Made by a program: the position numbers and the translations under genes
Part shown: positions 24,701-40,342 of the stretch, one piece after another
How positions within the stretch are numbered: position 1 is the stretch's first letter
How the letters are laid out: every line of letters begins with the position of its first letter
Assembly: GCA_963719495.1 (NCBI GenBank)
Contig: CAVRCI010000013.1
Span: 157,888-221,887, forward strand
Source: an uncultured Verrucomicrobiae bacterium
GTDB lineage: Bacteria > Verrucomicrobiota > Verrucomicrobiia > Chthoniobacterales > JAATET01
Direction of reading: 5' to 3'
DNA length: 64,000 nucleotides
The notes under the pieces: model-generated
The model's database searches: none
The model's input: only the letters and a program-made list of their open reading frames with translations
Told to the model about the DNA's origin: nothing

Positions 24701-27700
24701 GCGCGAGGGTCTCCAGGCGCGGGTCCGTCGAGCGCGGCGTCACGAGGACGGCACCGGGAAGCAACGCGTAACGCGGCGGCAGGAGCGTGTAGTCTCCCTC
24801 CGGCAGCGCACTGCTGGCATTCAGAAACACCCGGTCGCCCGCGCTCAACGTCCGGCTCAGGTATCCCGGATCACTCGCGATGTCCGGCGCGTTCGTCGAA
24901 CGGCTAAACGGCGCGAACGGCGCGACCTCACCTTGGAATTCAGGAACGACCGCAAACCGCTCCGGCACCGCCGTCCAAAACAGGTTCGGCTCCGGCGCGA
25001 CGCCCATACTGTCCTGCCGCGCCGAGAAGGTTATCCCGTCGAAAGTCACCAGGTCGCCCGCCTCGTAGTCCTGACCCGCCGACCAAGCGCCGGGTGCCGT
25101 CCCCAGCAGATCCACCGATCCGCCCTGACCCGCCACGAAGCGATAGGCAAACAGATCGCCGCCCCCGCGGAGATCGATCAGCGAGTCACGCGCGGTCGCC
25201 AGACTCGACGCGCCAACGCGCACTGACTTCGTCGGCACCCCGCCCGCCGTGATGTCGAAGCCCGCCGGGTCGAAGAACGACGTGTCGTTGACGTTCAACC
25301 CATAGGGGATCAGCAAGGCTTCGCCGGTGAGCGGGTCCACCGCCGAGGTGGAAGTCGTGCTACCCCGTCCCAGCACGAGCCGCCTCGTCACCGGGACGGG
25401 CAGAGTATTTCCGGTCAGCAAATCAACCGGCACGGTCCCCGTGCCGTCGAAGCCGAGCGAGATCGAGCCAATCGGAGCCCGCAAATTGCCACCCTGCTCG
25501 ATGACCGTCGCGTAGGCGTTGAGGCTGCCCCCCGCCGAGAGCGGAAGCGGCGACGTCCCGCTCGCGAAAAATTGAATGAGACCTTCCTTTGCCACCACGC
25601 GCGACGGCAGCGGCAACCTCGGCTGGTCCGGCGGGATCACGAACTCCGTCGGGATGACGTTCCGGTCTCGGCCCACGAAGTCGTAGGCGAAGATGTTGAA
25701 ATCCGCTCCCGTTGTCGGGTAGATCTGGTTCGCGTTCATCACGATCCGGCCCGCGATGCTGAGCGTCCCGTTGCCCCGAATGTCGCCCCCTTCGGCGATG
25801 AAACTCGCCCGCCGAATCGTCTGGAGCGACAGGTTGCCGATGTCGATCACGCGCCCTCTCACGGTCAGCTTTCCGCTACCCGTGGTCGGAGCGAAGAAGA
25901 ACGGTGAACCCAGGGAATTAAAGACACTCGTCGCCAGCGCGTCGTCGGCGCGGACCGGGGGCGCGAACGGCGTGCCAATCTCGACGTAAGGCGCCCGCAG
26001 ATCGACGTCGCCATCGGCGTAGATCACGCCCCCGCTCGCCACCGTAATCCGCCGACCCGCGTCCAGCCGCACGTCCCCGCGGAATTCGACCGTCCCGTCC
26101 AGCGTGAGCGATTCGAATCCCCCCTCCTGAAAGCGATCCGCCGTGAAGCGTCCGAAGGCGTCGAGCTTGTTGCCGTTGCCGTCCCGCACGGGATTCCCGA
26201 TCACCTTCCGATCATCGCTCCGCAAAAAGACGATGGGGGAGAACACCGCGTTCGGGTCGAACGCCGGGATCGCCCGGTCGCTTTGCGAGACCTGCAACGT
26301 CACGTCCGTCGGCAAACGCTCGAGGTCATTCGCATCGTAGAACCGCCCCGACGAGACGTTAACCTCACCCCCGAGGGCCGTCGGCCCGCCCCGCCGCCCG
26401 ATGAGAGTCGAATCGACAAAGAGCAATTCCCCACCCTCGAGGTTGATCGTTCCCGCGTCGCTGTCGAGCTGCACCGGGACCGTCCGGAAGGCGAAGAGCG
26501 GCGAGTTCAAACCACTCGTCTGCGGGATCAACGGCCCGTCCACCGGACCCCGGCCCAATCGGGAATTCAAGCCAAGGACCGCCGGCGCGACGTCGATCGT
26601 CGTCCGCGCGCCCGACACGTCGAGCACCGACCCCGCCGCGGCGTAGACGTTGCCCGACAGATTGATCGTCCCACCCGGGAGCACGAAACCCGTCCGGTTG
26701 CCGAACGCGTTGAACGTGCGGATCGCCGTTCCCTCCGTTGAAAGCCGCGCGCCCGGCGCGATGAAAACCGTCGCAAACGCCTCGGTCGGTGCCGCGTCGC
26801 GGGACGGCAAACTGTCCGCGCCGTCGACCGTGATCGTCCCACCCGGCGCCGTGATGCCACCCCGCACCACGATCGTATCGCCCTTCAAACTCACCGACGC
26901 TCCCGGGTCGGTCCGGATCGACGCCCCCGCCCCCATCACGAGATCACCCCGCACCGACAGCGACTGCAGGAACGTGTCCCTGGCCCCCAGCGCCGTGAAG
27001 GCAAGACTCACCGGTGTGCGGTCCGACAGCCGGTCGACCTGCCGCTGCACGCGGACCGGTTCGTCCCTCACCGCGAAAGCCTGCAAGTTTTGCGCCACCG
27101 GAGCCAGCTCGGTCCCGGCCGCGATCACGACCGCCGGGCGGTAGACGATCGGCTTGTCTGGATCCCGGTCCCGCACGAAATCCTCCAGCGAAAACGTCCC
27201 AAAGTTTCCGATCGTAAACGTCGCGTCCACGCCGATGCCAGCCAGCGAGAAACTCCCGAACCCACCCTCGTCAAAGAACGACGGATCCAGCACCAGCTTC
27301 CCCGGTCGCCGCGGCTCCCGGCCGACCCGGACCAGCGTCGACCGTAGCTCCAGCGCTCCGCCTTTTGCGCCCGAGAATCCGAGAAGCTCGCCGCCAAGTC
27401 GCAGATCGCCACCGGTTACACCGGTCAGATTCGGATCGCGGCCCGCGAGGATGGCGATCCGGCCGGCATCGCCGTAGTCGATGTCCGCGTCCGCATTCAC
27501 CACCAGACCGCCCGACACGTCGACCACCGACCCGCCCCGCATCCGCGCCGTGAACGCCTCGATCAGGATCTCGCCCCCATCCGTTCGCAGCGGCAACGAC
27601 CGCCGACTCGCCGACTCGAGACGGTCGTCCACCAGCAAGCCCGCCGTGCTCAGGCGAGTGCCCCGCGCCAGCGTGAAGATGCCCGCCGTCGGATCGACGT

Positions 27701-30551
27701 CCGGCTGGGCGAAGTCCGGAGACGCCGGATCCGCGAGCAGGATCGTCGCATCGTAGGTCGACGCGTTGTAGGCGGTGAAATTCAGACTTCCGCCCGGAGC
27801 CGTGATGTCGCCCGCCAGCGTGATATTGCGGCCCAGCAAGGTGAGCGAACCTCCCACCGGACCCACGATCGCCTCGCCGCGTGGGACGATCACGTCGCCG
27901 TCGCGATTATCCACCGTCACCGAGCCGAAGCCCGCGTCGCTCAGCAACTCAGGTGACAAAATGACCGTTTCCTGCCGGTCCGACCGCAGCGAGATTTGAA
28001 ACGACCCGTCCGTGTCGACAAACGGGTTGTCGTCGGGATCAAGCAGGAAGGGCGTGCCGTTCCGGGTGAGCGACAGCGGCTTGCCGTCGGCATCCACGGC
28101 GAAGGCGTCCGCCGCGGCCAGGTTTGAGTTCCGCTGGAAGACCACCGTCGGCGGCGTCGGCGAGATGAAAGGTTCCAGGATGCCCACCAGATCCGTCGGA
28201 TCCTGCGAGCGGAAGGTCAGCTCGAGCTGTCCCGCCGTCGGGAGAACGGAGTCGCCCTGCGCGTCGCGGAGCTGGCGCGGCCCGATCACGGTCCGGCCCG
28301 CCAATTTTCCATCGAGCGCCATCGCCGGGGCCGTGATCGCGATCCGACCGGCGTCGGAACCCTCGATGTAGGCCTGATCGAAGAATTCTCCGTCGAACGT
28401 GAGCGGACGGCGGAAGGTCCGCGTGATGCCGTATTTTTCGTTCGTCGTCGTCGTCGTGTCCGAGAAGAAGCCGTCGTAGACCCGATCCGGCGTCGCGTCG
28501 GCGATGTCGATCACTTGCCCGCCGACGAGCAGCCGCGTCGTGCGCACGAACCCACCTTCGTTCTGGAAAAACCCGCCCGACGTGTCGACCGTCGACCCGG
28601 CTTCGAGCACCACGGAATCCCCCGCGTTCATTGTCACCGACCCGCCGAGCGTCGTGAGCTGCCCGGCGTTCCGTTGGATCAACCCGACGAAGCCCGCCGC
28701 GTCCCCCAGCGGCGTGCCAACGAAAAATTTTCCGTTGAAAACCCCGTTCCGCCGCACGTCGATCCGCAGGTCGATCCCCCGCAGGAACGAGTCCCGCTGC
28801 AAGGGCGAGTCGGCCAGCTCCGCGCCGCGCAACTGCACGTCGAGGATGGATTGCGAAAGCGGCACGAACGCATCGGGCGTGCCCGCCACGTCGATGAACG
28901 CATCCCGCGCGGCCTGAATCCGCCCGCCGAAGAAGACAAATCTCGACTGCGGAGCGAAGTCCGACGGCACGAACTTGAAAGTCCCCGCGTTCAGCGTCAC
29001 GTCGGCGTTGGGCGCCAGCATCATCGAGCCACGCTCGAAATTGATCCCCTGACCCTGCGCGTTGATCTGGGAGCGCAGGGTCAATTCCGTTCCGACCACC
29101 ATCTCGTCGCTGTCCAGCTCCGGCAGGATCCGGGTCACACTGTCCTCGCCGAAGCGAATCGTTCCCGTCGAGCGATAGAGCACCGGCGGGTTGCTGGCGA
29201 CACTCGCCGGGTCGAAATTCGGATTGATCAGACCGTCGTAATTCGATTGCAGGTCGATGCGCCCGTTGAATGACACCGAAGTCGAACTATCGATGACCGC
29301 GAGCTGATTCACCTGGCGGCCCGCGATCGTCACGTTGCCGCGAGGTGCGGTGATCAACCCAAGGTTCGTTGCCGCCCCGCCAGTCGGCAAAGCCGAATCC
29401 ACCGCGCTTGAGACCGCGCCGATGAACACGTCGAGTCCGCGGAGGCTCGGATCCGCCGCGTCGTGTCCCGCGATCCCGACCTGCAGTCCCGCCGCCAGGA
29501 TCGTCTGGCCATCCTCGGTCGATATCGTCCCGGCGTTCTCGACGTTCGGGCCGACCAGCATGACCCGGCCACCGACGTTGTCCGCCGAGGTCGGACTCTT
29601 GATCCGCGCGCCGGCCCGCACTTCGACGTCCCCGGGACGACCGTCCGCCGTGAGCGGAGTCGCGGGATTGAACGCCGGCGTCCCCTTGCTCCCCGCCTCG
29701 AGCGGGATGGAGGAAAAAAGGAACTGCGCGTCGGGATTGTTCAGAAGTCCGCGCTGGACCAGTCCGTCGTTGATCGGCAGCGACGAGGCGACCAGCGTGT
29801 GCGTGTTCACCTGACTCGTCCCGCCGAAGATGATGCCGTTCTGGTTGATGACGTAAACCTGACCTTCCGCGCGGATCGATCCGAGGATTTGGCTGGGTGC
29901 ACCCGACGGATCGAGGATGCGGTTGAAGGCGATCCAATTCGTGACGTTGTCGCCAGCCTTCCGCTGATTGAAAAACACGGTCGTTTTTTTCCCAACGTTA
30001 AAGGTCTTCCACGTCAGTAACGCCTGCGGGTCGGTCTGCTTGATGGTGACGATGGTCTCGCCGTCCTTCGTCCGCTTCTGGGTCGGTAATTTTGCGCCGG
30101 TGTAGAGTTCGGGATCCTCGCCGTCCTCCGGGCGACGGAGATTTTTCGGCACGCCGGGTGCCAGGTTCAACCCATTCTCCTTGAGACCGTTCGGCACGTT
30201 CTTCAGCCGCGGTGTGCCGAGGCGCTGATTCAGCCCGTTGGGCAGCGGAATGCGCTGGAAGTTCGGGTTCCTCCCGAGGTTGTTGCCCTTCTTCGCCGCG
30301 GCCGCTGCCCGGGCCGCCGCCTGCATCTGCTTGACGGACTGCATCGCCTGCGTCGTCCGCGAGAGTCGGTCCTTCGCGTTCTGCCGGGCGGCGGCCGCCG
30401 CGGCGTCACCCGCTCCGGCCGTGCCGTCCGCCGGATTCCGACGCGACGCCTGGCCACTCGCGCCGCCGCGCAGCAGATCGCCGCCAAACGCCGACGCGCC
30501 CGCCAGCACCAGGCAGGCGAGCAATCGAACGGCGAGGACCCGGCGGAGCAT
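18708..30551 (-). CDS. Giant two-partner-secretion exoprotein (TpsA; filamentous haemagglutinin family), 3,947 aa
   Basis: Signal peptide, then an Ala/Gln-rich extension of about 170 aa. TPS (haemagg_act-like) domain: LTWKTFNVGKKTTVFFNQ...ILGSIRAEGQVYVINQNGIIFGGTSQVNTHTLVASSL. A long degenerate beta-helical repeat body follows. C-terminal region: GDISVFTDDSVDIG...IIWSSTGDIAAGSSAKT...LIAPVGVVDAGDAGIRATGNLTVAA...SIFVVEVVGYGGG, as in giant FHA-family proteins. No VENN/CdiA-CT-type boundary was seen. Confidence 0.9.
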   Translation of the reverse strand: MLRRVLAVRLLACLVLAGASAFGGDLLRGGASGQASRRNPADGTAGAGDAAAAAARQNAKDRLSRTTQAMQSVKQMQAAARAAAAAKKGNNLGRNPNFQRIPLPNGLNQRLGTPRLKNVPNGLKENGLNLAPGVPKNLRRPEDGEDPELYTGAKLPTQKRTKDGETIVTIKQTDPQALLTWKTFNVGKKTTVFFNQRKAGDNVTNWIAFNRILDPSGAPSQILGSIRAEGQVYVINQNGIIFGGTSQVNTHTLVASSLPINDGLVQRGLLNNPDAQFLFSSIPLEAGSKGTPAFNPATPLTADGRPGDVEVRAGARIKSPTSADNVGGRVMLVGPNVENAGTISTEDGQTILAAGLQVGIAGHDAADPSLRGLDVFIGAVSSAVDSALPTGGAATNLGLITAPRGNVTIAGRQVNQLAVIDSSTSVSFNGRIDLQSNYDGLINPNFDPASVASNPPVLYRSTGTIRFGEDSVTRILPELDSDEMVVGTELTLRSQINAQGQGINFERGSMMLAPNADVTLNAGTFKFVPSDFAPQSRFVFFGGRIQAARDAFIDVAGTPDAFVPLSQSILDVQLRGAELADSPLQRDSFLRGIDLRIDVRRNGVFNGKFFVGTPLGDAAGFVGLIQRNAGQLTTLGGSVTMNAGDSVVLEAGSTVDTSGGFFQNEGGFVRTTRLLVGGQVIDIADATPDRVYDGFFSDTTTTTNEKYGITRTFRRPLTFDGEFFDQAYIEGSDAGRIAITAPAMALDGKLAGRTVIGPRQLRDAQGDSVLPTAGQLELTFRSQDPTDLVGILEPFISPTPPTVVFQRNSNLAAADAFAVDADGKPLSLTRNGTPFLLDPDDNPFVDTDGSFQISLRSDRQETVILSPELLSDAGFGSVTVDNRDGDVIVPRGEAIVGPVGGSLTLLGRNITLAGDITAPGGSLNFTAYNASTYDATILLADPASPDFAQPDVDPTAGIFTLARGTRLSTAGLLVDDRLESASRRSLPLRTDGGEILIEAFTARMRGGSVVDVSGGLVVNADADIDYGDAGRIAILAGRDPNLTGVTGGDLRLGGELLGFSGAKGGALELRSTLVRVGREPRRPGKLVLDPSFFDEGGFGSFSLAGIGVDATFTIGNFGTFSLEDFVRDRDPDKPIVYRPAVVIAAGTELAPVAQNLQAFAVRDEPVRVQRQVDRLSDRTPVSLAFTALGARDTFLQSLSVRGDLVMGAGASIRTDPGASVSLKGDTIVVRGGITAPGGTITVDGADSLPSRDAAPTEAFATVFIAPGARLSTEGTAIRTFNAFGNRTGFVLPGGTINLSGNVYAAAGSVLDVSGARTTIDVAPAVLGLNSRLGRGPVDGPLIPQTSGLNSPLFAFRTVPVQLDSDAGTINLEGGELLFVDSTLIGRRGGPTALGGEVNVSSGRFYDANDLERLPTDVTLQVSQSDRAIPAFDPNAVFSPIVFLRSDDRKVIGNPVRDGNGNKLDAFGRFTADRFQEGGFESLTLDGTVEFRGDVRLDAGRRITVASGGVIYADGDVDLRAPYVEIGTPFAPPVRADDALATSVFNSLGSPFFFAPTTGSGKLTVRGRVIDIGNLSLQTIRRASFIAEGGDIRGNGTLSIAGRIVMNANQIYPTTGADFNIFAYDFVGRDRNVIPTEFVIPPDQPRLPLPSRVVAKEGLIQFFASGTSPLPLSAGGSLNAYATVIEQGGNLRAPIGSISLGFDGTGTVPVDLLTGNTLPVPVTRRLVLGRGSTTSTSAVDPLTGEALLIPYGLNVNDTSFFDPAGFDITAGGVPTKSVRVGASSLATARDSLIDLRGGGDLFAYRFVAGQGGSVDLLGTAPGAWSAGQDYEAGDLVTFDGITFSARQDSMGVAPEPNLFWTAVPERFAVVPEFQGEVAPFAPFSRSTNAPDIASDPGYLSRTLSAGDRVFLNASSALPEGDYTLLPPRYALLPGAVLVTPRSTDPRLETLAQPDGTRLVSGYRYNGLNRDRDVPTVFSSFEVLDRGNVLNRAEYRLLTANRFLSNRARALEVDVPRLPIDAGRLVLQGLDRLVVRGGVLGSAPMGGRGARIDISTPLNILVTGRGIDTATAEFPPDLFGVGTFGQPETAVARIRASLLNSFDAESLFLGGERIDVANGTFVRTLSSGIFLDNAGTPLVGPEIVLSANRLITLAPGSSVIQRGSLGGEADRLLLRRDGVLVRVSSDFDATTLRTGVTPSREPSLFVGRGSVISGTSVLLDSTYSTTLARRAVIEGESIGLNSGQITVALRKPGKIEPTVGLILRGRLLRQLGDARSLSLLSYSTFDVYGSGQFRGGDFLSINAGEIRSFQTGKRPARFFADSVLLGNAGNVTVPEPAAAVEGEVPEPPRGGLAFTGRTIELAANDLAFRDFATLEFTADRRLRFTGEGALTTDGTLTVTTPSISGGRSAIRTITAAGDVALLAAGGKARPGSGGLGANLSITGTSVRADSAISLPSGLLTLRATEGDVTVGGRLDVSGRRISIYDIVRFTDAGNVSLISDRGSVLLGEDSVIDVSSDPRRGDAGRIAVEAGLGDFVAGGTLLGGGSRRGASGSFQLDVSEIENLGGLDEVLNIANFNALRDYRIRSGDVRIDGEAKAAVYRLATDAGSIRVAGRIDASGVTGGRIELKASGSVVLADGAVLDASGKKFDAAGKGGSVLLEAGSQIDGVIDETGQIEILRGSLINLRVAQARENSQEDRGWFTGTLHLRAPRTAAGDDLAIAAIAGEIRGASSVIAEGYRLYDLTGVGEEITTGLRNTINSDAATFLGAAGTESANYGAMRTRLVGDDGALGSILTIRPGVEIVNRTGDLRLGSEFSPQNNDWNLATFRFGPRSVPGILTLRASEDLVFFNTLSDGFFTSAFNSRLVERNPEVPLNAQSWSYRLAAGADFTAADFSRVLALGLLAADKGSFKIGKPTGTGAAFPSGSNASTRNTIPRSFQVIRTGSGDIDIVAGRDIQLLNQIASIYTVGTQVADATLGGTYDVPFLNANGGQFFLGAVQQNPGYQPQFTMGGGDVTLEAGRDIARYRLDFDGVTLLTDSSRQLPINWLYRVGFVDPETGAFGAGRFDGPTFPQILSTSWWVDFSNFFEGVGALGGGNVSLLAGNNVTNVDAVVPTNARSPKGIPNADALVELGGGDLTVRAGNAIDGGVYYVERGRGLLDAGSEIRTNSSRSPSVGVFANQAPLDELTWLPTTLFLGKGSFDVRARGDILLGPVANPFLLPGGYNNTYWYKSYFSTYDPKSAVDVTSLGGSVTLRESVVLPTVGAGGSTPTLLAWFQNVLVFDAQRTTASTFQPWLRLNETSVASFSTVVGLKPPTLRVTAFSGDINVAGDLTLAPAPNGTLELIAGGAINGLQPQGVTTVNGAPVVGFGSSRIIVSDADPANVPGIESPFAYQSLVGTTGLARQSGDDFLFFVNALFAETGAPTLDLQTRQALHSSDLLHRDDPDPVRLYASNGSISGLTLFSPKVTRIFAGRDITDVSFYLQQTSETDTTVISAGRDILLYNANSPGRSAAVASGNQLNLGEVPLAGDIQLGGPGVLEILAGRDLDLGTGENNADGTGVGITTLGNSRNAALPFTGSSVIAIAGLRETAEGLAGSNLDFDAFIEAFLFEDVDDPTATTAAGGLGGLGGLGDLTLEEFLALPNVRRNQLALDVFYDVLRTTGRRAVDPASPTFQNYDRGFEAIDALFNGRYRGELLTRARDVRTRSGGGIQLLAPGGGLTLANSTLGAALVPPGIVTESGGDISVFTDDSVDIGIGRIFTLRGGNQIIWSSTGDIAAGSSAKTVQSAPPTRVLLDPSSADVQTDLAGLATGGGIGVLATVRGIPPGDVDLIAPVGVVDAGDAGIRATGNLTVAATEFRNAGNSVAGGTTTGAPAPAVVSAPNVGGLTSAAGTAGAAQSSADDAAGNFQPTAAPREEAPSIFVVEVVGYGGGAVSASSEPTPTPEPAAR
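19661..19687. repeat. In-frame 9-bp perfect tandem repeat (CGCCCAGTC)x3 inside tpsA
   Basis: cgcccagtc x3, then a degenerate cgcccgccg. Encodes the GGLGGLGGLG tract near the TpsA C-terminal region. Confidence 0.85.
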
Positions 30552-30564
30552 CGAAAAAGGGCGG

Positions 30565-31455
30565 TTAGTTCTTCGGCAGCAACTCGCCGAGTTTCATCTC
30601 GTTGATCGCGACCGGGTTCACCTGCAGCAGCTGCGCGACGTATTCCTGGCTGTTCTGCTCGGCCTTCGCCTGCCGCATCCGCTGGACGAGGGCGTCCCGC
30701 ACCTCCGCGAGGTCGGGGGTGTAGGCCGGCTTGGTCTCAAGCACTTTGACGATGTGAAAACCATCCTCGAGCTGGATGGCGGGCGACACTTTTCCGGCGT
30801 CGAGCTGCCCGATCTCATCGCGAATCCCGGGCTGGATCTGCGCTTCGGTGAGCCAGCCGATCTCACCACCCTTCGCGGCACTCTGCGGCTCTTCGCTGCG
30901 GGCCTTGGCGATGGCGGAGAAATCCGAACCCGATTTCCCCAGGCTGGTTTGGATCTCATCGATCTTCACCTTCGCCACGGCGGTCGCCTCCTGGTCGGCG
31001 TCCCGCGGCAGCGCCACGAAGATCTGCGCGAGTCGGACCTGATCCGGCACCTTCAACGCGGATTGGTTTTCGTTGTAGGCGGCCTCGACTTCGGCGTCGC
31101 TCGGGTAGTCCTTCGCGGGTTCCGCCTTGGCTTCGAGGTAAGCTTGCGTGATGGCCCTTTCACGCAATTGCGCCAGCTCTGCCGCGATCTTGGGCGTGTC
31201 GGCGAATTCCTCCTTTGTCGCGGTCTGGAGAACGAGCTGCTGGACGACGAGCGAACGGACGAACTGGTTGAGCAACGCCGGATTTGCGGCGAGAGCCTGC
31301 TTCTCCTGGTCGCTCAGCGCCTCGATGCGCGGCTGGAGGTCGTCGACGGTGATCTCGACGTCGCCGGCTCGGGCGACCGGGTCGGCGGCGTGAAGGGAAA
31401 CGGAACCCGCGATCAGGATCGCGGCGGTCAGGTGGGTGTGGATACGGATTTTCAT
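30565..31455 (-). CDS. Parvulin-type peptidyl-prolyl isomerase (SurA/PrsA/Par27-like periplasmic chaperone)
   Basis: Trimmed to ATG 31455 (MKIRIHTHLTAAILIAGSVSLHA, a signal peptide). Rotamase core: VRLAQIFVALP...FSAIAKARSEEPQSAAKGGEIGWLTEAQIQPGIRDEIGQLDAGKVSPAIQLEDGFHIVKVLE. Stop is 14 nt before the tpsA start; the start overlaps the upstream stop as ATGA. Confidence 0.8.
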   Translation of the reverse strand: MKIRIHTHLTAAILIAGSVSLHAADPVARAGDVEITVDDLQPRIEALSDQEKQALAANPALLNQFVRSLVVQQLVLQTATKEEFADTPKIAAELAQLRERAITQAYLEAKAEPAKDYPSDAEVEAAYNENQSALKVPDQVRLAQIFVALPRDADQEATAVAKVKIDEIQTSLGKSGSDFSAIAKARSEEPQSAAKGGEIGWLTEAQIQPGIRDEIGQLDAGKVSPAIQLEDGFHIVKVLETKPAYTPDLAEVRDALVQRMRQAKAEQNSQEYVAQLLQVNPVAINEMKLGELLPKN

Positions 31456-32129
31456 TGTCTGATCTTTTGTTCGGCGAGGTCGTCGCCGTAGTCCTGCATG
31501 AGGTTTTGAAACTTCACCCGCGTCGTGCCGACGAAGGGCTCGCGGGTCGTGATCGCGTCGCCGAGACCGAAGCCTTCGTAGCGGTCGAGGATCTCTTTCC
31601 CGACCGCGTAGAGCTTCCGGTTCGTCGCGGCGTATTCGTCGTTGGTGCGCTGGAGCAGGATCGCCTTCGCGGCGAGCTCCGCCCGCTTGGCCTCGGTCGC
31701 CTTCGCGTAGTCGGTGAGCTGGCCGTAGGATTTCTTCCACTTCGCCAAGGCCTGGATTTGGACGGCGTTCCGAGTGTCCTGCTCGGCGACTTCCTTCTCG
31801 AGGACGGCGATCCGCTCGGCGGCGATCTCGCTGTCTTCGGTCGATTTTTTCTCGAGCTTCGCGAGCTTGGATTCAAGGGATTTGATCTGATTCTCGTTCT
31901 GAAGCTGCGTTCCCTGGAGCGCCGCGATCTGACCCTGCGCGTCGCGCAGCTGGACGAGGGTGCTCTTCAACTGGTCGCGGAGCTGGACCTCGGCCTCGGT
32001 CGGCCCCTCCTGCGCGAAACCAACCGTCACGCAGGCAAGCGCCAAGAAGATCGCGGCGCCCCGCCGACACGATCCCGAAGGGATCCCACCCCCAGCAGGT
32101 CGGGGTTGAAAACCCCGGCATTCGACCAC
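31452..32129 (-). CDS. Coiled-coil periplasmic protein (hypothetical)
   Basis: Heptad-rich sequence (LRDQLKSTLVQLRDAQGQIAALQGTQLQNENQIKSLESKLAKLEKK...) preceded by the hydrophobic AAIFLALACVTVGFAQE. The start is uncertain: GTG 32129 is proposed, and the track ATG at 32309 would read through a hairpin-repeat cluster. Confidence 0.5.
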   Translation of the reverse strand: MVECRGFQPRPAGGGIPSGSCRRGAAIFLALACVTVGFAQEGPTEAEVQLRDQLKSTLVQLRDAQGQIAALQGTQLQNENQIKSLESKLAKLEKKSTEDSEIAAERIAVLEKEVAEQDTRNAVQIQALAKWKKSYGQLTDYAKATEAKRAELAAKAILLQRTNDEYAATNRKLYAVGKEILDRYEGFGLGDAITTREPFVGTTRVKFQNLMQDYGDDLAEQKIRQ

Positions 32130-32268
32130 CCAACGGCATCGATCCCGGAGGGATCGCACCCACTCGGATAAAAGCACGGCTGCGATCCCTCCGGGATCGA
32201 TGCTGCTCCCGCGGGCCGATCCGGGGGTCTTCGACCCCCGGCTGCTGACGCTGGGATCCCTTCGGGAT
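32071..32268. repeat. Cluster of short perfect hairpins (4x GATCCC-N3-GGGATC plus others), REP/BIME-like
   Basis: gatccc-gaa-gggatc (32071-85), cggggtt-gaa-aaccccg (32101-17), gatccc-gga-gggatc (32141-55), gggatcgca...tgcgatccc (32150-89), gatccc-tcc-gggatc (32184-98), ccgggggtc-ttc-gacccccgg (32221-41) and gatccc-ttc-gggatc (32254-68). All lie between the porin-like gene stop (32313) and the coiled-coil gene. Confidence 0.85.
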
Positions 32269-32312
32269 CGCGTCCCGCCGGTCGGTATTTGCGTTGCAAT
32301 TTGGTTCATGAG

Positions 32313-34265
32313 TTAGAATTTGGCGTTGAGATCGAGTTGGAAGCGGTCTTCTCGGAGCCGCGGGCCGGCGATGCTTTCGCCGCTCAGGTAGCTGGCCGTG
32401 AACCACACGTTCTTGGACAGCGCGACGCTGCCGCTCACGGTGTAGCCCTTGAGATTCGTGCCGCCGCCGCCGAAGTTCGAGTCGTTGAATCCATCGACGA
32501 CCGAGTCAGACTCGACGTAGCGGTAGCCAAACGCGACGCCCCAGTCCCACCGCTTGGCCAGCTTGGCCGTGCCGACCTCGACGCCCACGATCCACGCGTT
32601 CCCGCCGCCGATGAAGTCGCCGACGTCCGACAGATCGTCCGGGTCGATGTCCCCTCGATTGTTCACCGCGATGTCGTTGATCGCTCCCTGGTCGAACGCC
32701 AGGTTCTTGACGTAGTCGCCAAAGACGGAGATCACGACCGGCTCGAAATAGGTGAGACTCAGCCGACCCGCGAAAGCGAGATTCTGAAACTCGGTCGCGA
32801 GTCCGTAATATTGAAACTGGTTGATGGTCCCGAAGTTGTTCGCTTCGGTCGGAATGATGTTGCGGATCGGGCGGTAGGTGTTGCCCTTCTGCGCGAACAT
32901 CGGGCGGCTGTTGTCGGTGCTCCCGGCGTCGTTCGAATCGAGCGGCACGTAGGGGTCCGAGAGTTGGCCCTCGATGTTGTCGAAATAAAAGTAACCGAGC
33001 GCCGTCGTCACGTTCACGTGCTTCGTGACATCCCAATCGAGGCCGCCCTGGATCGCGTAGAGGTATTTGTCGTAGCTCTCGATTTTGTCGGGCGAGTTGC
33101 TGGGGAAATCGAACGCGGTGTTGAAGATGGGAAATAGACCCGTCGTGAAAAACGGCGTGAGCCCGAAGCCGACGTCATACCGGGCGCTGGCCGCGATCCC
33201 GTCGAACGCGATGTCGTTGTCCCACATGATCTGCGACGTCCGGAAGAACGGGTTATCGAAACGCCCAACCTCGATCCCGATGCTGCGGTCGGGTCCCTGC
33301 GTCAGCTCGTATTTGATGAACGCGCGGTCGATCCAGATCGAATACTTTTGGAAGTTCCCGTCGGGCGATCCGAGAGTCTGGTTCGCCGACACGGGGGAAT
33401 TGCTGTTGCCGGACGCCAACCGGAATCCGGTGGTGAAGCCGTCGCCCAGCTGGATCTCCGCGCCGAGCCGCAACCGAATCCGCAGACGACTGCGGTTGTC
33501 GCTCACGTTCAACTGCGGGGAAAATTCGTCGCCCGTCACGTCGAACGGCGCGCCACTGTTGATCGCGTCGAAGTTCGGAAACACGCCCGAATCATCGTTC
33601 CCGCTCGGAAAACGAACGCCCTCGTAGCGGAACCGCACGTCCGCGAAGGGCCGCACGTCGCGCACCCAGCTCGGCAGAAAGGAGTCATCCGCGAGCAGCT
33701 CGGCCTTCGTCGCCGCCAGCACGTCTTCCTTGATCTCATCGCGGATCTGATTTCGCACGAAGCTTGGCACGTAGGTCACCCGCACCGATTCCTCGTCCAG
33801 GGGCGGGGGCGTGTTCGCGATGAGCGTCTCCGCGGCGGCGTTCGTCTCCGAGATCGCCTGCGTCGCGAGGGCGTCCTTCGTCCGCGCGATCTCGGCGTCC
33901 ATCTCGGCCTGCGCGATCAACTCGGCGGCGTCCTCGCGGGTGAGGATGCCTTTCTCGACCAGGCGGTTGATCAGATTAATCGTCACGCTGTGCGACGGCG
34001 ACGGGAGATCGTTCACGTCGAGCGGCCGCTCGGGCTCGAAGTCGGGCGGCGTCAGCAAATCGGGAGCCGCCGCGAGGTCGTAATCCCCGTCGCCCATCGG
34101 CAGCGCCTCGGCGGAAACGTCGACCGTCTCGGTGCGCTCGGCGTTCACCGCTTCAATCGGGACGTTCGCGGAAGCGTTCGTGATTTCCTGCGGCGTCTGC
34201 GCGTGAAGGACGCCCGCGGCCAGGGCGGCGAAAGCGGTTCGAATGGAAGTGCTCCTCAGTTTCAT
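32313..34265 (-). CDS. Outer-membrane beta-barrel (putative porin family-like) with long N-terminal periplasmic extension
   Basis: Trimmed to ATG 34265 (MKLRSTSIRTAFAALAAGVLHAQT, a signal peptide). The C-terminal roughly 450 aa show alternating amphipathic strands and end ...DRFQLDLNAKF with a terminal Phe, an OMP signature. The N-terminal roughly 200 aa are non-barrel and include ETVDVSA (nt 34110-34130). Starts 11 nt after the tonB stop. Confidence 0.6.
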   Translation of the reverse strand: MKLRSTSIRTAFAALAAGVLHAQTPQEITNASANVPIEAVNAERTETVDVSAEALPMGDGDYDLAAAPDLLTPPDFEPERPLDVNDLPSPSHSVTINLINRLVEKGILTREDAAELIAQAEMDAEIARTKDALATQAISETNAAAETLIANTPPPLDEESVRVTYVPSFVRNQIRDEIKEDVLAATKAELLADDSFLPSWVRDVRPFADVRFRYEGVRFPSGNDDSGVFPNFDAINSGAPFDVTGDEFSPQLNVSDNRSRLRIRLRLGAEIQLGDGFTTGFRLASGNSNSPVSANQTLGSPDGNFQKYSIWIDRAFIKYELTQGPDRSIGIEVGRFDNPFFRTSQIMWDNDIAFDGIAASARYDVGFGLTPFFTTGLFPIFNTAFDFPSNSPDKIESYDKYLYAIQGGLDWDVTKHVNVTTALGYFYFDNIEGQLSDPYVPLDSNDAGSTDNSRPMFAQKGNTYRPIRNIIPTEANNFGTINQFQYYGLATEFQNLAFAGRLSLTYFEPVVISVFGDYVKNLAFDQGAINDIAVNNRGDIDPDDLSDVGDFIGGGNAWIVGVEVGTAKLAKRWDWGVAFGYRYVESDSVVDGFNDSNFGGGGTNLKGYTVSGSVALSKNVWFTASYLSGESIAGPRLREDRFQLDLNAKF

Positions 34266-34276
34266 CAAATTAGTCT

Positions 34277-34987
34277 TCAAGGTCGTTTGGCCGTGATCCG
34301 CATCACGATGGGCATGGGCATGTCTCCGGGCGGCGGACCCGCCAGACGAAGACCCGTCAAAACTTCCGCCGCCGCGCCACCGCCCGAAACACGCGTGATC
34401 CGGCCACTGGAGTCGGCCCAGACCCGCACCTCCGACGTCATCGCCGCGCTCCGTGTCCGCTTGTCGGTCCGCAGAGCCTGCGCGACTGCCGATTGCACTC
34501 CAGCGGCGTAATTGCCCCACACGGTCCCGCCAGCGCCACCGCCACCCGGACGTCCGCCACCGCCGATGCGCATGCCATTCCCGGATCCGCTCAGACCGAA
34601 GCCGTCCGGTGGGCCGTCGCCTTGCAGACTGGTTCCCATCGGTTCGTCCGGCGGCGATTCCGGTTCGGGAGCGTCGACGGGCGCCGCCTCGGCGACCGGG
34701 TCCTGCATGACCATGTCGTCCTCGGGTTCCGTTTCCTCCCGCTCCTGCTCGATGGGTTCGGGCGTCGCGGGTGCCGGCGTGGGCGGCGGAGGGGGTGGTG
34801 GCGGCGGCAGCGTCACCATCGTGATGCTCTGCTGCGCTCGCTTGGGCTTGGATTCGCCGCCGCTTCCCAGGAAGAAATACGCCGCGCCGCCCGCGACGAC
34901 CAATGCCACCACGATCAAGACGCCGAACTTCGCGAAGAACCCGCGCTCGTCCTCGTCGTCGTCCTCGATCTCGTGATACTCCGCCAT
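34277..34987 (-). CDS. tonB: TonB-like energy transducer
   Basis: N-terminal TM (FGVLIVVALVVAGGAAYFFL), proline-rich spacer (TLPPPPPPPPPTPAPATPEP), an acidic stretch, then a C-terminal domain of about 90 aa. Lies directly downstream of exbB-exbD. Confidence 0.65.
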   Translation of the reverse strand: MAEYHEIEDDDEDERGFFAKFGVLIVVALVVAGGAAYFFLGSGGESKPKRAQQSITMVTLPPPPPPPPPTPAPATPEPIEQEREETEPEDDMVMQDPVAEAAPVDAPEPESPPDEPMGTSLQGDGPPDGFGLSGSGNGMRIGGGGRPGGGGAGGTVWGNYAAGVQSAVAQALRTDKRTRSAAMTSEVRVWADSSGRITRVSGGGAAAEVLTGLRLAGPPPGDMPMPIVMRITAKRP

Positions 34988-34997
34988 CGTCCGCTGA

Positions 34998-35396
34998 TTA
35001 CTGGGGGGCCTGCGTGGCCAACCCGACCTTCTCGACGCCGACGCGCCCGACGACGTCGAGCACGTTCATGATTTGCTGATACTGCGTGGCGCTGTCGCCC
35101 TTCACCACGACCGGGAAGTCGGGCGTGCGCGCCTTCTCCGCGGTCAGCCGACTCTCCAATTCCTCCAACGACACCGGCAGCGTGTTTTGAAAAATCTGCC
35201 CCTCGCTGTTGACCGTGATCGCCTGCACCTTCGACTCCGCGATCGACGGCGACTTGCTGGCCTTCGGCAGATCGACCTTCGTCCCCTGCACTCCCGCCGT
35301 CGTCATGATGATGAAGATCAGCAACAGCACGAGGTAGAGATCCACCATGGGCGTGACGTTGATGTCGTCGTAGGACTTGTTGTCTCCGGCCTGCAT
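34998..35396 (-). CDS. exbD: Biopolymer transport protein ExbD/TolR
   Basis: DINVTPMVDLYLVLLLIFIIMT is the ExbD/TolR N-terminal TM signature with the conserved Asp. 132 aa. Nine untranslated nt separate it from the exbB-like stop. Confidence 0.85.
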   Translation of the reverse strand: MQAGDNKSYDDINVTPMVDLYLVLLLIFIIMTTAGVQGTKVDLPKASKSPSIAESKVQAITVNSEGQIFQNTLPVSLEELESRLTAEKARTPDFPVVVKGDSATQYQQIMNVLDVVGRVGVEKVGLATQAPQ

Positions 35397-35405
35397 CGTC
35401 GGCGG

Positions 35406-37325
35406 TTAGTGGTCGCTCGCCCGCGCGACTTCGGCGTGGGCGGGGCGGGTCTCGGAGCGGTCGGTTGTCGGCACGGGGACGACACTCGGCGTCGGCGTGG
35501 GATAAAACTCCGCCATTTTTGCAACGAATTCGTCATTGAACACCTGCATCGACGCGAGCAAATCGCGGATGCGCGAACTCAGGAAGCTGTAGATGAACAA
35601 CGCCGGGATCGCCACGAGCAGCCCGAACACCGTCGCCAGCAGAGCGCTCGCGATGCCGGGCGCGATCGAATTCACGTCGACCTCGCCGGACTTCGCGATG
35701 ATCGCGAAAGTGATCATCACGCCGACCACCGTGCCGAGCAGCCCGACGTAGGGCCCACCCGCGATGCTGATCGTCAGGAAAATGAGGCCTTTGTTCATGC
35801 GGTGATTTTCGTGAACGATTCCCGTTTCGAGGCTGGCCTTGATGGCCTGAATCGAACGCGCCGACAGTCCCTTCGCGCGATTCCCGTTTCCGACGCGGTG
35901 GCGGATCTCCTCCGAGCCGATGTGGTAGAGGTGGTAGACCGGCGACTTGTGCATGAGCTTGGACATTTTCCCGCTCACGTCGGCCATGATCCCACCCTCG
36001 CGATCGAGCGCGGTCAGGTCGCTCGAGACCTTGCTCCACTGCTTCATGAAGGCCTCCGTGCCCTTCTGGATTCGGTTGAGGTAATTGTATTTCTGGATCG
36101 CGACCCACCAGCCCAGGATCATCATCAGGATGCAGACGCCGACCGCGATCCAGCCGTCAAACATCATGTTCTTCGCGATGTCGCCGAAGAGCATCACGTG
36201 CTCCATCGCGCCGCCGTGCTCGCCGGACGCGTGGCCGCTCACCTCCGACTCGCCGACCTGTAGCAACTTGGCCGCGGTCGAAGACGCGCCTTCGTTGACC
36301 GCGAGGAACTTCGCTTTGCCGAGCGGCATCGCCGCGTTCATCACCTGAAGCTCGTCGAGCTCGCCGATGAATTGCGTGTCGCCCGCGTCGACGTCTCCGC
36401 CCAGCGTGAGGCCATTGGCAAACGCCGGCAGCGCGCTCGCGATCGTGCCGTAGGTCTCCCCGTCGACGAGCAGCGTCGCGATTCCCGCGTCGACGCTCAC
36501 CGCGACGTGCCGCCACGTCCCCGCCGCGATTGGCTCACCAGCCGCGGTCTTTTGCGTCGTGCCGCCGGCCTTGATTTCCAGAAACGGCACGCCGCCCTCG
36601 ATCCCGAGCACGAACCCATTCGCGCCGTCGCGACGACTGAAGATCACCGCGCTCGGCTGGTCCACCACCGGTTTCACCCACGCGGCGACCCCCGCGCCGC
36701 CACCCGCGGTCCACGCGAGCGTCGGCGAGGCTGGCACGACGATCGACGTCTGACCATCGAGCCGCAGGCCGCTCCCGATCATGGCGCCGGGCACCGTTGC
36801 CCCGCCATTCTCGGCGTTGTTCCCCGCCGCCGACGCGTCCGTTGGCGGCTGGGCGGCAAAGTGGTAGACCAGAACGGTCGAGCCGCCGTAGGTGCCCGCC
36901 GGGTCCTGCACGCTTTCGACGCCCTCGGCGAGGTTGCCGTAGTAGAGCCAGAACTTCAGCGGCGCGTCGGCCTTCACGTCCTCCGCCTTCATCCACACGA
37001 ACGCCTCGTTGAGCAGCGCGTCGTATTTCTCGATGTGATACGGGATCAGCGTCTCGCCGTCCTCGGCCACGAAGCGGATGTCGCTGCCGTCGGGCCGGGC
37101 CGAGGCGAAGTTGAAGTTTCCGTCGTGCAGCCGCACCAGCACCGACGTCTCCCCGACGGGATCCGCGATCGCCCCCGCTTCCGGACCCGCATCGATCGTG
37201 AAAGGCGTGCGGATCGTCCACTCCTCGTTCCACCAGCCCTCGGGTGCCGCGCTGGCCGATTGATTCAGCCCTCCGAGGAGCAGCCCGGCGAGCAGCAGCG
37301 TTTTCAAATTCAATTTTCGCATCAT
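35406..37325 (-). CDS. exbB: DUF2341 / LamG-like / MotA-TolQ-ExbB proton-channel fusion protein
   Basis: Signal peptide. DUF2341-like N-terminus: GWWNEEWTIRTPFTID...DGSDIRFVAEDGETLIPYHIEKYD...FWLYYGN. LamG/concanavalin-like middle: GLRLDGQTSIVV...WRHVAVSVD...LLVDGE...LGGD...FIGELDELQV. C-terminal MotA/ExbB channel: GLLGTVVGVMITFAIIA...IAPGIASALLATVFGLLVAIPALFIY. Confidence 0.8.
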   Translation of the reverse strand: MMRKLNLKTLLLAGLLLGGLNQSASAAPEGWWNEEWTIRTPFTIDAGPEAGAIADPVGETSVLVRLHDGNFNFASARPDGSDIRFVAEDGETLIPYHIEKYDALLNEAFVWMKAEDVKADAPLKFWLYYGNLAEGVESVQDPAGTYGGSTVLVYHFAAQPPTDASAAGNNAENGGATVPGAMIGSGLRLDGQTSIVVPASPTLAWTAGGGAGVAAWVKPVVDQPSAVIFSRRDGANGFVLGIEGGVPFLEIKAGGTTQKTAAGEPIAAGTWRHVAVSVDAGIATLLVDGETYGTIASALPAFANGLTLGGDVDAGDTQFIGELDELQVMNAAMPLGKAKFLAVNEGASSTAAKLLQVGESEVSGHASGEHGGAMEHVMLFGDIAKNMMFDGWIAVGVCILMMILGWWVAIQKYNYLNRIQKGTEAFMKQWSKVSSDLTALDREGGIMADVSGKMSKLMHKSPVYHLYHIGSEEIRHRVGNGNRAKGLSARSIQAIKASLETGIVHENHRMNKGLIFLTISIAGGPYVGLLGTVVGVMITFAIIAKSGEVDVNSIAPGIASALLATVFGLLVAIPALFIYSFLSSRIRDLLASMQVFNDEFVAKMAEFYPTPTPSVVPVPTTDRSETRPAHAEVARASDH

Positions 37326-37334
37326 CGTCTTGGG

Positions 37335-38966
37335 TTAAAATTCTCCCCAGACCCGGAACGTCAGACGCCAATCGCCCTCCGCCGTGTTCGCCTGGCTGAT
37401 TAAAGGCAGACCCGCGTCGAGCGAGCCGTAGAGGTAATCGAAAAGTTGCAGCCGACTCCCCGCGCCGACGCTCGTGAGCGTAAACTGGCTTGTCTGTTGC
37501 GGCAGCGGATCGTTGATCGTCGTCATCCCGTAATCCCAGAAGGCGTAGACCCGCCAGTCGTCGATCCCGTAGAAATCCTCCACCGCCGGCGTCCGTGCCT
37601 CGATCGTGCTCACGAACGCATTGTCTCCCAGCGCCTCGGCCTCGAGGTAGCCCCGCACCGTGTCCAAGCCGCCGATGGCGAATTGCTCGCTGTCGACGAG
37701 CGCGTCGCCGCTCGCCTGACCTTGAATCTGACCGTAGAGCTGAAAGCCGTAAGGCAGGTCCTGCGTGTGGGCCAGATCGCCACGGAAGTAGAAGAACGAC
37801 CCATCCGCGTTGAAGCGGCGGTTGTCGAAATCCCGCTCGCTGCTCCCCGCGCCGGAGAACGCCCACGTCACGCCGGCATTGATCTCGGTGATCGAGAGCT
37901 CGGTCGCCTTCGCCGCGTTGTAGGAAAGCGTGAAAGGATAATAGGTGATCGGGGTCGCGATGAACTGATCGGTGAATTGCAAGTCCTGCTGGAGGTGCTT
38001 GTAATCGAGGCCGAAGCTCAACGAATGGTAGAACCCGTCGTAGCGCGAAGGCAAAGTCGCCATGAGCCGCCCGCCGATGATCTCGCCATTACCCGCGACG
38101 GCCGATCCGCCGAGCGTCGAGATGTTGCTGTTCTGCCGCGTCGCCGTGAACATCGCGCTTAGCCACGGGATCTGGGGCGCGCGAGCGATGTAGTAAAAAG
38201 AATAAACCTGCGCGTCGTCGATCTCCTCCGGCGCGATCTGAAAACTGAACCCGATCGTGTGCCCGAGCTGCCAGAGGTTGCCGTAGCTAATGCCCCCGTT
38301 CAGTCGAAGCGGCGTCGTGTTGGCGATGTAACGGTTATTGAGCTCGAAATTTCCGTGGAGCGGGAATTTGTCTTCGACCGTGAGATCGACGTCGACCGTG
38401 CCGGGATCGAACCCAGCCTTGAGCGTCGGGGCCACGCGGCGGTCGGCCAATTGGTTGATCTCGACGATCTCGCGGGCGACGTCGTTGAAGTTCGGCACGT
38501 TCCCCTCGGCCAGCGAAGGCACCCGCTTCTTGATTTCGTCGATGTCGTAAAATCGCGAGCCGCGCACCCTAAGCCGCCCGACCGGGGCCTCGACGACGTT
38601 CAGCAGGATCACGCCCCCGCGCGCGGTTTGTTCGGGGATTTCGACGGCGACGGACTGGTAGCCCTTTTCGTGATAAGCCGACTCGAGCGCCGCCCGGGCG
38701 TCCTCGACGTCCGCCTCCGATCGCCCTGGACCCATGTAGGGATAGACGGCCTCCTCGACCTCGATCGGCGGCAGTTTGGTCGACCCGTTAACTCTGTATT
38801 CCTGGATGTAGAGTGATCCCAATTCGGTTTGCGTCCGCACGGTTGCTGCGGGTTCGGACCAGCCGCGAGCAGCGGTCACCAGCAAGGCCAATCCGAGCGC
38901 CATCGGGACGCTCGCGCCCGAGCGCGAACGCCCTGACGGGACGCGGTTGAATTTGCCGAGGTTCAT
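37335..38966 (-). CDS. TpsB transporter (ShlB/FhaC/HecB family, Omp85 superfamily)
   Basis: POTRA region typical of ShlB-type proteins (YIQEYRVNGSTKLPPIEVEEAVYPYMGPGRS...GYQSVAVEIPEQTARGGVILLNVVEAPVGRLRVRGSRFY...). Beta-barrel ending ...WRLTFRVWGEF. Nine untranslated nt separate its stop from the exbB-like start. Confidence 0.85.
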   Translation of the reverse strand: MNLGKFNRVPSGRSRSGASVPMALGLALLVTAARGWSEPAATVRTQTELGSLYIQEYRVNGSTKLPPIEVEEAVYPYMGPGRSEADVEDARAALESAYHEKGYQSVAVEIPEQTARGGVILLNVVEAPVGRLRVRGSRFYDIDEIKKRVPSLAEGNVPNFNDVAREIVEINQLADRRVAPTLKAGFDPGTVDVDLTVEDKFPLHGNFELNNRYIANTTPLRLNGGISYGNLWQLGHTIGFSFQIAPEEIDDAQVYSFYYIARAPQIPWLSAMFTATRQNSNISTLGGSAVAGNGEIIGGRLMATLPSRYDGFYHSLSFGLDYKHLQQDLQFTDQFIATPITYYPFTLSYNAAKATELSITEINAGVTWAFSGAGSSERDFDNRRFNADGSFFYFRGDLAHTQDLPYGFQLYGQIQGQASGDALVDSEQFAIGGLDTVRGYLEAEALGDNAFVSTIEARTPAVEDFYGIDDWRVYAFWDYGMTTINDPLPQQTSQFTLTSVGAGSRLQLFDYLYGSLDAGLPLISQANTAEGDWRLTFRVWGEF

Positions 38967-40278: not shown

Positions 40279-40342
40279 AAGGATGGATTGCAGGGTGTTT
40301 TTTTTGGGTTGGTTGGGTTGGTGTTTGAGGTGAGTTGTGGGG

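Follow-up and report, generated by a model that had tools for sequence, protein, structure and literature searches.

The Porin_5 gene, its product and its operon

The 64,000-nucleotide stretch analysed here (the window: positions 157,888 to 221,887 of contig CAVRCI010000013.1, assembly GCA_963719495.1, from an uncultured Verrucomicrobiae bacterium) carries on its minus strand, at 32313..34265, a gene for a putative outer-membrane porin of the Pfam family Porin_5 (PF16930), whose open reading frame (ORF) translates into 650 residues followed by a stop codon. It belongs to an ancient module of five genes, whose fixed outer-membrane component it encodes, the others being genes for an ExbB, an ExbD, a TonB_2-type and a coiled-coil protein. 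The module lies within a two-partner-secretion operon that also contains the transporter TpsB, a giant TpsA of the DUF3739 type and often a SurA-like peptidyl-prolyl isomerase (PPIase). The gene family and the association of the genes are already known from databases and from the Pseudomonas literature; a lineage-specific sequence island close to the N-terminus of the porin is a new, minor feature.

All genes of the operon lie on the minus strand. Upstream of the porin gene are found a TpsB transporter of the ShlB/FhaC type (37335..38966; POTRA_2 and ShlB domains in Pfam), an ExbB/TolQ-type channel (35406..37325), whose periplasmic N-terminal region of ~370 residues bears DUF2341 and LamG domains recognised by Pfam, an ExbD/TolR protein (34998..35396; PF02472, E 5e-28; best NCBIfam model TolR, below its cut-off) and a TonB-like protein (34277..34987). 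The window ExbB and ExbD score higher on the TolQ and TolR models than on those for ExbB and ExbD, with all NCBIfam scores far below the cut-offs. Downstream of the porin gene follow a periplasmic coiled-coil protein (31452..32132, start uncertain), which is the positional counterpart of PA0697 of Pseudomonas aeruginosa, a PpiC/SurA-like PPIase with Rotamase domains in Pfam (30565..31455, start approximate), the counterpart of PA0699, and a giant TpsA of 3947 residues with a TPS domain and a C-terminal DUF3739 domain (18708..30551; Pfam). The TpsA genes of related loci likewise end in DUF3739. A sub-threshold CBM_5_12 match is seen near residue 1822 of the window TpsA.

The TonB-like gene ends 11 nucleotides upstream of the Porin_5 start codon, in agreement with the initial annotation, which had placed the porin gene directly downstream of tonB. 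A transmembrane anchor and a PPPPPPPPP linker are visible in the sequence of its product, and a TonB_2-type C-terminal domain is assigned through the orthologues, 30 of 33 of which match PF13103 (TonB_2). The window copy itself has no Pfam match. It lacks, together with its nearest relatives L003 and L004, 10 residues that correspond to a helix, SSGDxxxDxAI, present in the other 30 aligned orthologues, and it is because of this 10-residue deletion that the window protein escapes Pfam TonB_2. A profile search of the PDB with the TonB-like protein gave low-complexity matches and a weak match to HasB (E 0.31).

The Porin_5 protein starts with MKLRSTSIRTAFAALAAGVLHA, followed by QTPQ; its opening stretch reads MKLRSTSIRTAFAALAAGVLHAQTPQ, and NAERTETVDVSAEAL is also found in the translated 32313..34265 ORF. 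The first 22 residues (34200..34265) were read as a signal peptide from the n-, h- and c-region pattern, with cleavage after A22 being a by-eye call from the same pattern. The orthologue P0003 begins like the window protein in a comparison of starts. Residues 93-650 align to positions 2-535 of the 535-position PF16930 profile ('putative porin') with an E value of 2.3e-181 and 604.5 bits against a cut-off of 22, which makes the protein a full-length member of the family. When the Plug, TonB_dep_Rec and putative-porin families were considered, only Porin_5 matched: neither Plug (PF07715) nor TonB_dep_Rec (PF00593) was detected by Pfam even at E<=10, and Pfam found no SLH domain in the protein. 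In a relaxed Pfam scan, residues 98-119 gave a weak, sub-threshold SHOCT-like match. A literature search on Porin_5 or PF16930 found nothing relevant.

An AlphaFold2 monomer model was built from 88 homologues (mean pLDDT, the predicted local distance difference test, 77; predicted template-modelling score 0.68), and its secondary structure was assigned by DSSP. Residues 18-87 are disordered, with pLDDT below 50. Three helices, at residues 94-104, 110-150 (33816..33938, a long helix placed in the periplasm) and 168-192 (33690..33764), precede a barrel of 16 long strands across residues 204-649; with its long conserved inter-strand loops the barrel region, residues 204-650, is encoded at 32316..33656. 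The gene product is thus a Porin_5 outer-membrane protein made up of a signal peptide, a tether that is flexible and of low complexity, a conserved helical region and a plug-less 16-strand barrel. Pfam, AlphaFold2 and Foldseek together bear out the first description of this protein as porin-like, with a helical N-terminal region that is not a plug and a barrel of fewer than 22 strands.

A Foldseek comparison against the PDB returned OmpM1 of Veillonella as the top match (8bys; E 3e-15, target-normalised TM-score 0.71), followed by MOMP, AlgE, OmpF/OmpC/OmpK36, OprB and DcaP (6eus), the solved porins being matched at E values of 1e-15 to 1e-9. There is no TonB-dependent transporter among the 50 Foldseek matches listed, and PDB sequences searched with a profile from the Porin_5 alignment yielded no significant match (best E 0.56). 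OmpM1 of Veillonella parvula and DcaP of Acinetobacter are 16-strand barrels that follow a periplasmic N-terminal helical stalk. The window porin resembles them in having three helices before its 16 strands; it differs from them in the absence of an SLH domain and of significant sequence similarity, and neither of the two is known to be linked to a motor. The comparison with TonB-dependent transporters such as BtuB, FhuA and FepA is of another kind. It is shared with them that a disordered segment near the N-terminus carries a heptad of the acidic-T-hydrophobic-x-V-[TS]-A type and that an ExbB-ExbD-TonB-type motor is encoded alongside, whereas the window porin is plug-less, has 16 rather than 22 strands and carries a heptad that is unconserved in its family. 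Membership in the TonB-dependent transporters was rejected on the absence of a plug domain and on the strand number. As to nomenclature, the Porin_5 homologue P0224 of Pseudomonas chlororaphis is named 'Putative outer membrane TonB-dependent receptor' in one public source, a name that apparently derives from gene context.

It is noted that the barrel's loops are conserved in an unusual manner. Loops L1, L2, L4, L5 and L7 (residues 219-257, 287-308, 382-399, 430-492 and 585-604) have conservation values of 0.77-0.90, compared with 0.68 for the membrane strands, and the pattern is kept between phyla. Judged from these alignments, this order of loop over strand conservation is the reverse of that in classical porins, and it suggests that the loops may fill the lumen or make a conserved docking surface. 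An ordinary diffusion porin was rejected on this ground, and a specialised channel or dock is favoured over a general diffusion pore because the long loops are so unusually conserved.

To assess the conservation of gene order, we used the best 80 related loci from species-representative genomes, all of them from Verrucomicrobiota, with loci from three contigs in addition; proteobacterial relatives were reached through a plasmid collection and a second protein search. Among the Verrucomicrobiota loci, 58 had enough upstream sequence and 61 enough downstream sequence to be informative. On the upstream side, ExbB and ExbD are both present in 56 of the 58 loci, and the TonB-like protein and TpsB in 55 each; on the downstream side, the coiled-coil gene is found in 59 of the 61, TpsA in 49 and the PPIase in 23. 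The typical order, kept in ~95% of the informative Verrucomicrobiota loci, is TpsB, ExbB (with DUF2341 and LamG), ExbD, TonB_2-type protein, Porin_5, coiled-coil protein, an optional PPIase and the giant TpsA. The order of the module is also seen in Alpha-, Beta- and Gammaproteobacteria. In Methylosinus, genes for an extracytoplasmic function (ECF) sigma factor, FecR and a VreA-like protein are followed by ShlB, ExbB, ExbD, TonB and a putative porin, and downstream of the latter by a hypothetical protein, a PPIase, YbjN and a filamentous haemagglutinin. Matching orders occur on a Klebsiella plasmid and in Aquabacterium and Cupriavidus, and a Pseudomonas contig reads DUF772, ShlB, DUF2341/LamG/ExbB, ExbD, TonB_2, Porin_5, a 209-residue protein, YbjN, PPIase and LysR. 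The window ExbB shares, over its full length, 34% identity with the orthologue on the Klebsiella plasmid, and the window coiled-coil protein is 30% identical (E 2e-25) to that of Methylosinus; on these alignments, the ExbB and the coiled-coil proteins are orthologous across phyla. The DUF2341/LamG/ExbB architecture is kept from Verrucomicrobiota to Klebsiella and Pseudomonas, and DUF2341-ExbB proteins are listed as uncharacterised in a 2025 survey of MotAB relatives. Based on this synteny, in Verrucomicrobiota and Proteobacteria alike, it is very likely that the porin is the outer-membrane partner of the co-encoded motor, as had been proposed at the outset. The Porin_5 gene on a Methylomagnum plasmid (L086) has phoU two genes downstream and, ~8 kb away, a TpsB/TpsA pair in divergent orientation.

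The PA0691-PA0701 region of P. aeruginosa PAO1 comprises phdA, pdtB, exbB2, exbD2, tonB4, PA0696, PA0697, PA0698 (YbjN) and PA0699 (PpiC PPIase), beside pdtA (PMC7035377; PMC4971064). PA0696 is labelled 'putative outer membrane porin', and the function of exbB2D2-tonB4 and of PA0696-PA0700 is described as unknown (PMC7035377). All of these genes belong to the PhoB/sigma-VreI (PUMA3/VreI) regulon (PMC7035377; PMC4971064), and Llamas et al. (2009) noted that two-partner secretion genes, ExbBD and PA0696 homologues associate in several Proteobacteria (PMC2729926). The window resembles the Pdt locus in presenting, in order, TpsB, a long ExbB, ExbD, a TonB-like protein, a putative porin, a protein of ~210 residues, a PPIase and a giant TpsA, and the Pseudomonas contig described above likewise has Porin_5, a DUF2341/LamG ExbB and a TonB_2-type protein in Pdt order. 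Unlike the Pdt locus, the window has no YbjN gene in the operon and lacks vreAIR and Hxc as neighbours: no YbjN-family ORF lies between the coiled-coil gene and TpsA, where the proteobacterial loci carry one, and vreAIR genes were not identified around the operon. The window locus is the verrucomicrobial counterpart of pdtB-exbB2-exbD2-tonB4-PA0696-PA0697-PA0699 and pdtA, the equivalence of PA0696 being drawn from synteny and its published label.

The ETVDVSA heptad and the N-terminal extension

The initial annotation had pointed to a TonB-box-like heptad, ETVDVSA, at nucleotides 34110-34130 of the minus strand, about 25 residues into the mature protein. Translation confirms the position: the codons GAG ACG GTC GAC GTT TCC GCC (34130..34110) encode residues 46-52, which are mature residues 24-30 given the by-eye cleavage after A22. 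The heptad forms the end of an island, ERTETVDVSA (residues 43-52; 34110..34139), defined by its position and by comparison of orthologues, within a disordered and variable extension (residues 23-88; 34002..34199) delimited by low pLDDT and low column conservation. The pattern [DE]T[ILVM]x[ILVM][TS][AG], which was fixed after the sequence had been seen, arises in 0.09% of shuffles of residues 23-92 (P about 9e-4) and has a single match across the six-frame open stretches of at least 100 residues in the window. Because of this shuffle rate and the single occurrence, it seems unlikely that the heptad stands at its spot by pure chance, despite the post hoc choice of the pattern.

These observations can be taken to mean that ETVDVSA is a true TonB box, in which case the TonB-like domain would bind it by strand augmentation and pull the tether, and the porin would be a force-gated, plug-less TonB client. 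The heptad has the classical pattern and is situated, in the predicted structure, in a disordered and accessible segment. The ERTxTV core is kept in proteins that are 49-56% identical overall and whose surrounding residues are unalignable, and one of the orthologues (L005) carries ETVAVTA. An analogous capture is known for the N-terminal 'TolA box' of TolB, a short disordered strand bound by the C-terminal domain of TolA via strand augmentation; TolB is a soluble beta-propeller associated with the outer membrane, whereas the window protein is a barrel. The closest precedent in concept, itself a proposal, is offered by GltA and GltB of Myxococcus, porin-like barrels with unstructured N-termini, of which GltB has a proposed TonB-box-like sequence, the suggestion being that TonB-like domains of a Tol/Exb-type motor, those of GltG/GltJ, pull on it (PMC9946355; PMC11761067). 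Like the window porin, these barrels are plug-less and have extended unstructured N-termini; they differ from it in serving gliding motility rather than two-partner secretion and in working with another motor (AglRQS) and other periplasmic partners, the likeness being one of concept.

The survey of orthologues speaks against a TonB box of general importance. It covered the 172 verrucomicrobial orthologues for which a start of the conserved domain could be assigned. Two of them, the window protein and L005, carry the strict heptad, and 11 carry the island in its looser form, ERTxTV/TETV. In a neighbor-joining tree of the conserved domain, the 11 carriers form three patches of one clade and one outlier, interleaved with relatives that bear a different island, WSALPRAE, or none. 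In the proteobacterial orthologues (about 565 residues), only 4-30 residues precede the conserved motif PSENATINLI; those examined have no long disordered extension and no ERTETV-type island. In addition, the C-terminal strand of the TonB-like protein, GMPMPIVMRIxARRP, is nearly invariant across Verrucomicrobiota clades whose N-terminal islands differ completely, and the TonB-like domain of the window is an atypical deletion variant. We retain from the original TonB-box proposal the classical pattern of the heptad; its conservation at the level of the family, on which that proposal had staked itself, fails in the orthologue alignment. On this comparison, ETVDVSA cannot be the family's general coupling element, because it is lineage-restricted and is absent from the proteobacterial orthologues. 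That the heptad should be a true TonB box appears quite unlikely.

Islands of other types are found in other clades, with at least 18 proteins of the KNRIVFD type and about 52 of the LIAAxD type. Compared with the expectation from shuffling, the TETV island occurs 11 times versus 0.1, KNRIVFD 18 versus about 0 and LIAAxD 52 versus 5.8, counts that are inflated by shared ancestry. The type of island shows no association, beyond phylogeny, with features of the TonB-like domain or with the presence of the PPIase gene. The segment before the conserved domain, signal peptide included, varies from 17 to 387 residues in the verrucomicrobial orthologues and is rich in Ala, Pro, Ser and Thr; the extension is about 12 residues or fewer in some of them (L064, L078), and its column conservation is 0.24 versus 0.68 for the strands. 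Some lineage-level function of the window island is nevertheless favoured, because the ERTxTV core persists within an unalignable stretch and stands at the tip of the tether. We infer that the far tip of the tether presents, in ERTETVDVSA, a short linear motif specific to the lineage; it would provide at most an accessory or clade-specific contact, and the island may act as a lineage-specific tethered ligand.

The partner of such a ligand could be a strand-binding protein other than the TonB-like one, namely the POTRA domains of TpsB, the SurA-like PPIase, the LamG/DUF2341 region of ExbB or the coiled-coil protein. All of these are co-encoded with the porin, POTRA domains and SurA-type chaperones are known to bind extended segments, and the islands sit at the distal end of a Pro/Ala-rich tether, a geometry fit for a distant partner. 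Against this stands the independence of the island type from the PPIase gene, which accompanies the TETV island in loci L002-L004 and is missing from L005. We regard an alternative partner of this kind as improbable.

Candidate contact sites and the proposed role of the motor

The near-invariance of the TonB-like C-terminal strand, as the receptor, leads one to expect an invariant ligand as well, and two segments of the porin outside the extension have the corresponding conservation. The first, PSHSVTINLINRLVEKGILTR (residues 89-109; 33939..34001), was recognised by its conservation within and between phyla, with values of 0.80 within Verrucomicrobiota and 0.73 across phyla and with L98, L102, V103, G106 and L108 invariant. 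Its equivalent in Proteobacteria is the extreme mature N-terminus, which is the usual place of TonB boxes and of the 'TolA box' of TolB. The second, ESVRVTYVP (residues 159-167; 33765..33791), also resembles a TonB box, with the pattern acidic-[ST]-hydrophobic-x-hydrophobic-[TS], and lies in the extended linker that joins two helices. Two of its residues, V163 and Y165, do not vary between phyla, and P167 is invariant among 88 Verrucomicrobiota sequences; the block-mean pLDDT is 47 for residues 151-160 and 62 for residues 161-170, and DSSP assigns no helix or strand to residues 159-167. The whole region of residues 89-203, which we place in the periplasm by inference, is conserved to the level of the barrel. 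By sequence conservation, residues 89-109 and 159-167 would be better family-wide contact candidates than the heptad and are offered as leads only; the comparison ranks both ahead of the heptad as sites of contact with the motor. The strand on the TonB-like side is well kept in Methylosinus and less so on the Klebsiella plasmid.

We propose that a proton-driven ExbBD-type motor would reach the outer membrane through the TonB-like protein, whose C-terminal strand GMPMPIVMRI would dock on an element of Porin_5 that is conserved and periplasmic. The porin, or an associated step in the handling of the giant TpsA, would then be controlled by force or tethering at this dock. This overall picture, in which Porin_5 is the motor's outer-membrane partner by way of TonB-like docking and the heptad is an accessory at most, is in our judgment rather probable. 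Several points weigh against it. Operon linkage is not proof of contact between the TonB-like protein and the porin, and the C-terminal domain of the former might have another target, be it the coiled-coil protein, the LamG domain, TpsB or peptidoglycan. In the window, this domain misses one helix, and residues 94-104 of the porin are predicted to form a helix rather than a strand. Porin_5 genes also occur with no ExbB-ExbD-TonB genes within 10 kb (L067, L082 and L086), and the barrel can therefore exist without a motor nearby. Finally, mutants in PA0695 and PA0696 left VreI-induced zebrafish lethality unchanged (PMC2729926).

Some of the same evidence would fit another explanation, in which the extension is a mere spacer, the heptad a neutral remnant and Porin_5 a specialised diffusion channel or a dock for TpsA, used for example under phosphate starvation as in Pseudomonas, with the motor acting elsewhere. 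The extension varies in length and composition and is nearly absent in Proteobacteria, the barrel is of the 16-strand porin type, and motor genes are missing near some Porin_5 genes. Phosphate limitation induces PA0696, along with OprO and OprP, and PA0696 belongs to the most strongly induced proteins (PMC9769906). What such an explanation accounts for less well is that Porin_5 almost always adjoins a TonB-like gene, across four bacterial classes or phyla, that the clades have islands of their own far above the shuffle expectation, even though ancestry inflates the counts, and that residues 89-203 match the barrel in conservation. We consider it unlikely, and keep to TonB-like docking on Porin_5 as the preferred interpretation.

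Two-partner secretion is held to need no energy at the outer membrane, and TonB-type motors are held to act on plugged 22-strand transporters or, in the Tol system, on Pal/TolB. A dedicated Ton/Tol-like motor and a plug-less porin that are fixed in an operon for secretion of a giant adhesin, from Verrucomicrobiota to Pseudomonas, point to an unexplored use of inner-membrane energy at the outer membrane. A bolder proposal is that the porin, the motor and the coiled-coil protein constitute an unrecognised trans-envelope machine for type Vb secretion, powered by the proton-motive force, which would use a box at residues 89-109 or 159-167 family-wide and ERTETVDVSA as a clade-specific one, and would drive or control how giant DUF3739 adhesins such as PdtA are exported, kept at the surface or retracted. 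This proposal is tentative and somewhat unlikely. The exbB2D2-tonB4-PA0696 genes of P. aeruginosa, which are expressed in infection and in phosphate starvation, make the hypothesis testable in a tractable organism.

Palindromes and neighboring genes

Four GATCCC-N3-GGGATC palindromes are found at 32071-32269 of the window, where 0.01 would be expected by chance, and none occurs elsewhere in the window. They sit in an insertion of ~200 nucleotides between the Porin_5 stop codon and the part of the coiled-coil gene that encodes its signal peptide. The closest relative, L003, does not have this insertion, and its coiled-coil gene starts 2 nucleotides after the porin stop codon. The start of the window coiled-coil gene is displaced by the palindrome-rich insertion; a later in-frame start, a GTG near 32132, is probably used.

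Two further genes lie upstream of TpsB on the minus strand. The 1100-residue product of 41316-44618, upstream of the cluster, has a weak TamB-domain match; within the compared sequence, this TamB-like protein is kept only in the two nearest relatives. The product of 39082-40404, just upstream of TpsB, is a 440-residue protein with a signal-peptide-like hydrophobic N-terminus and no Pfam match. A comparison with the substrate-binding protein that neighbours the Methylomagnum TpsB yielded no more than a marginal local match (E 0.002). Homologues with 29-38% identity (93% in the nearest relative) are present in 13 related loci, in most cases directly upstream of TpsB, and the protein may belong to the cluster as an accessory member.

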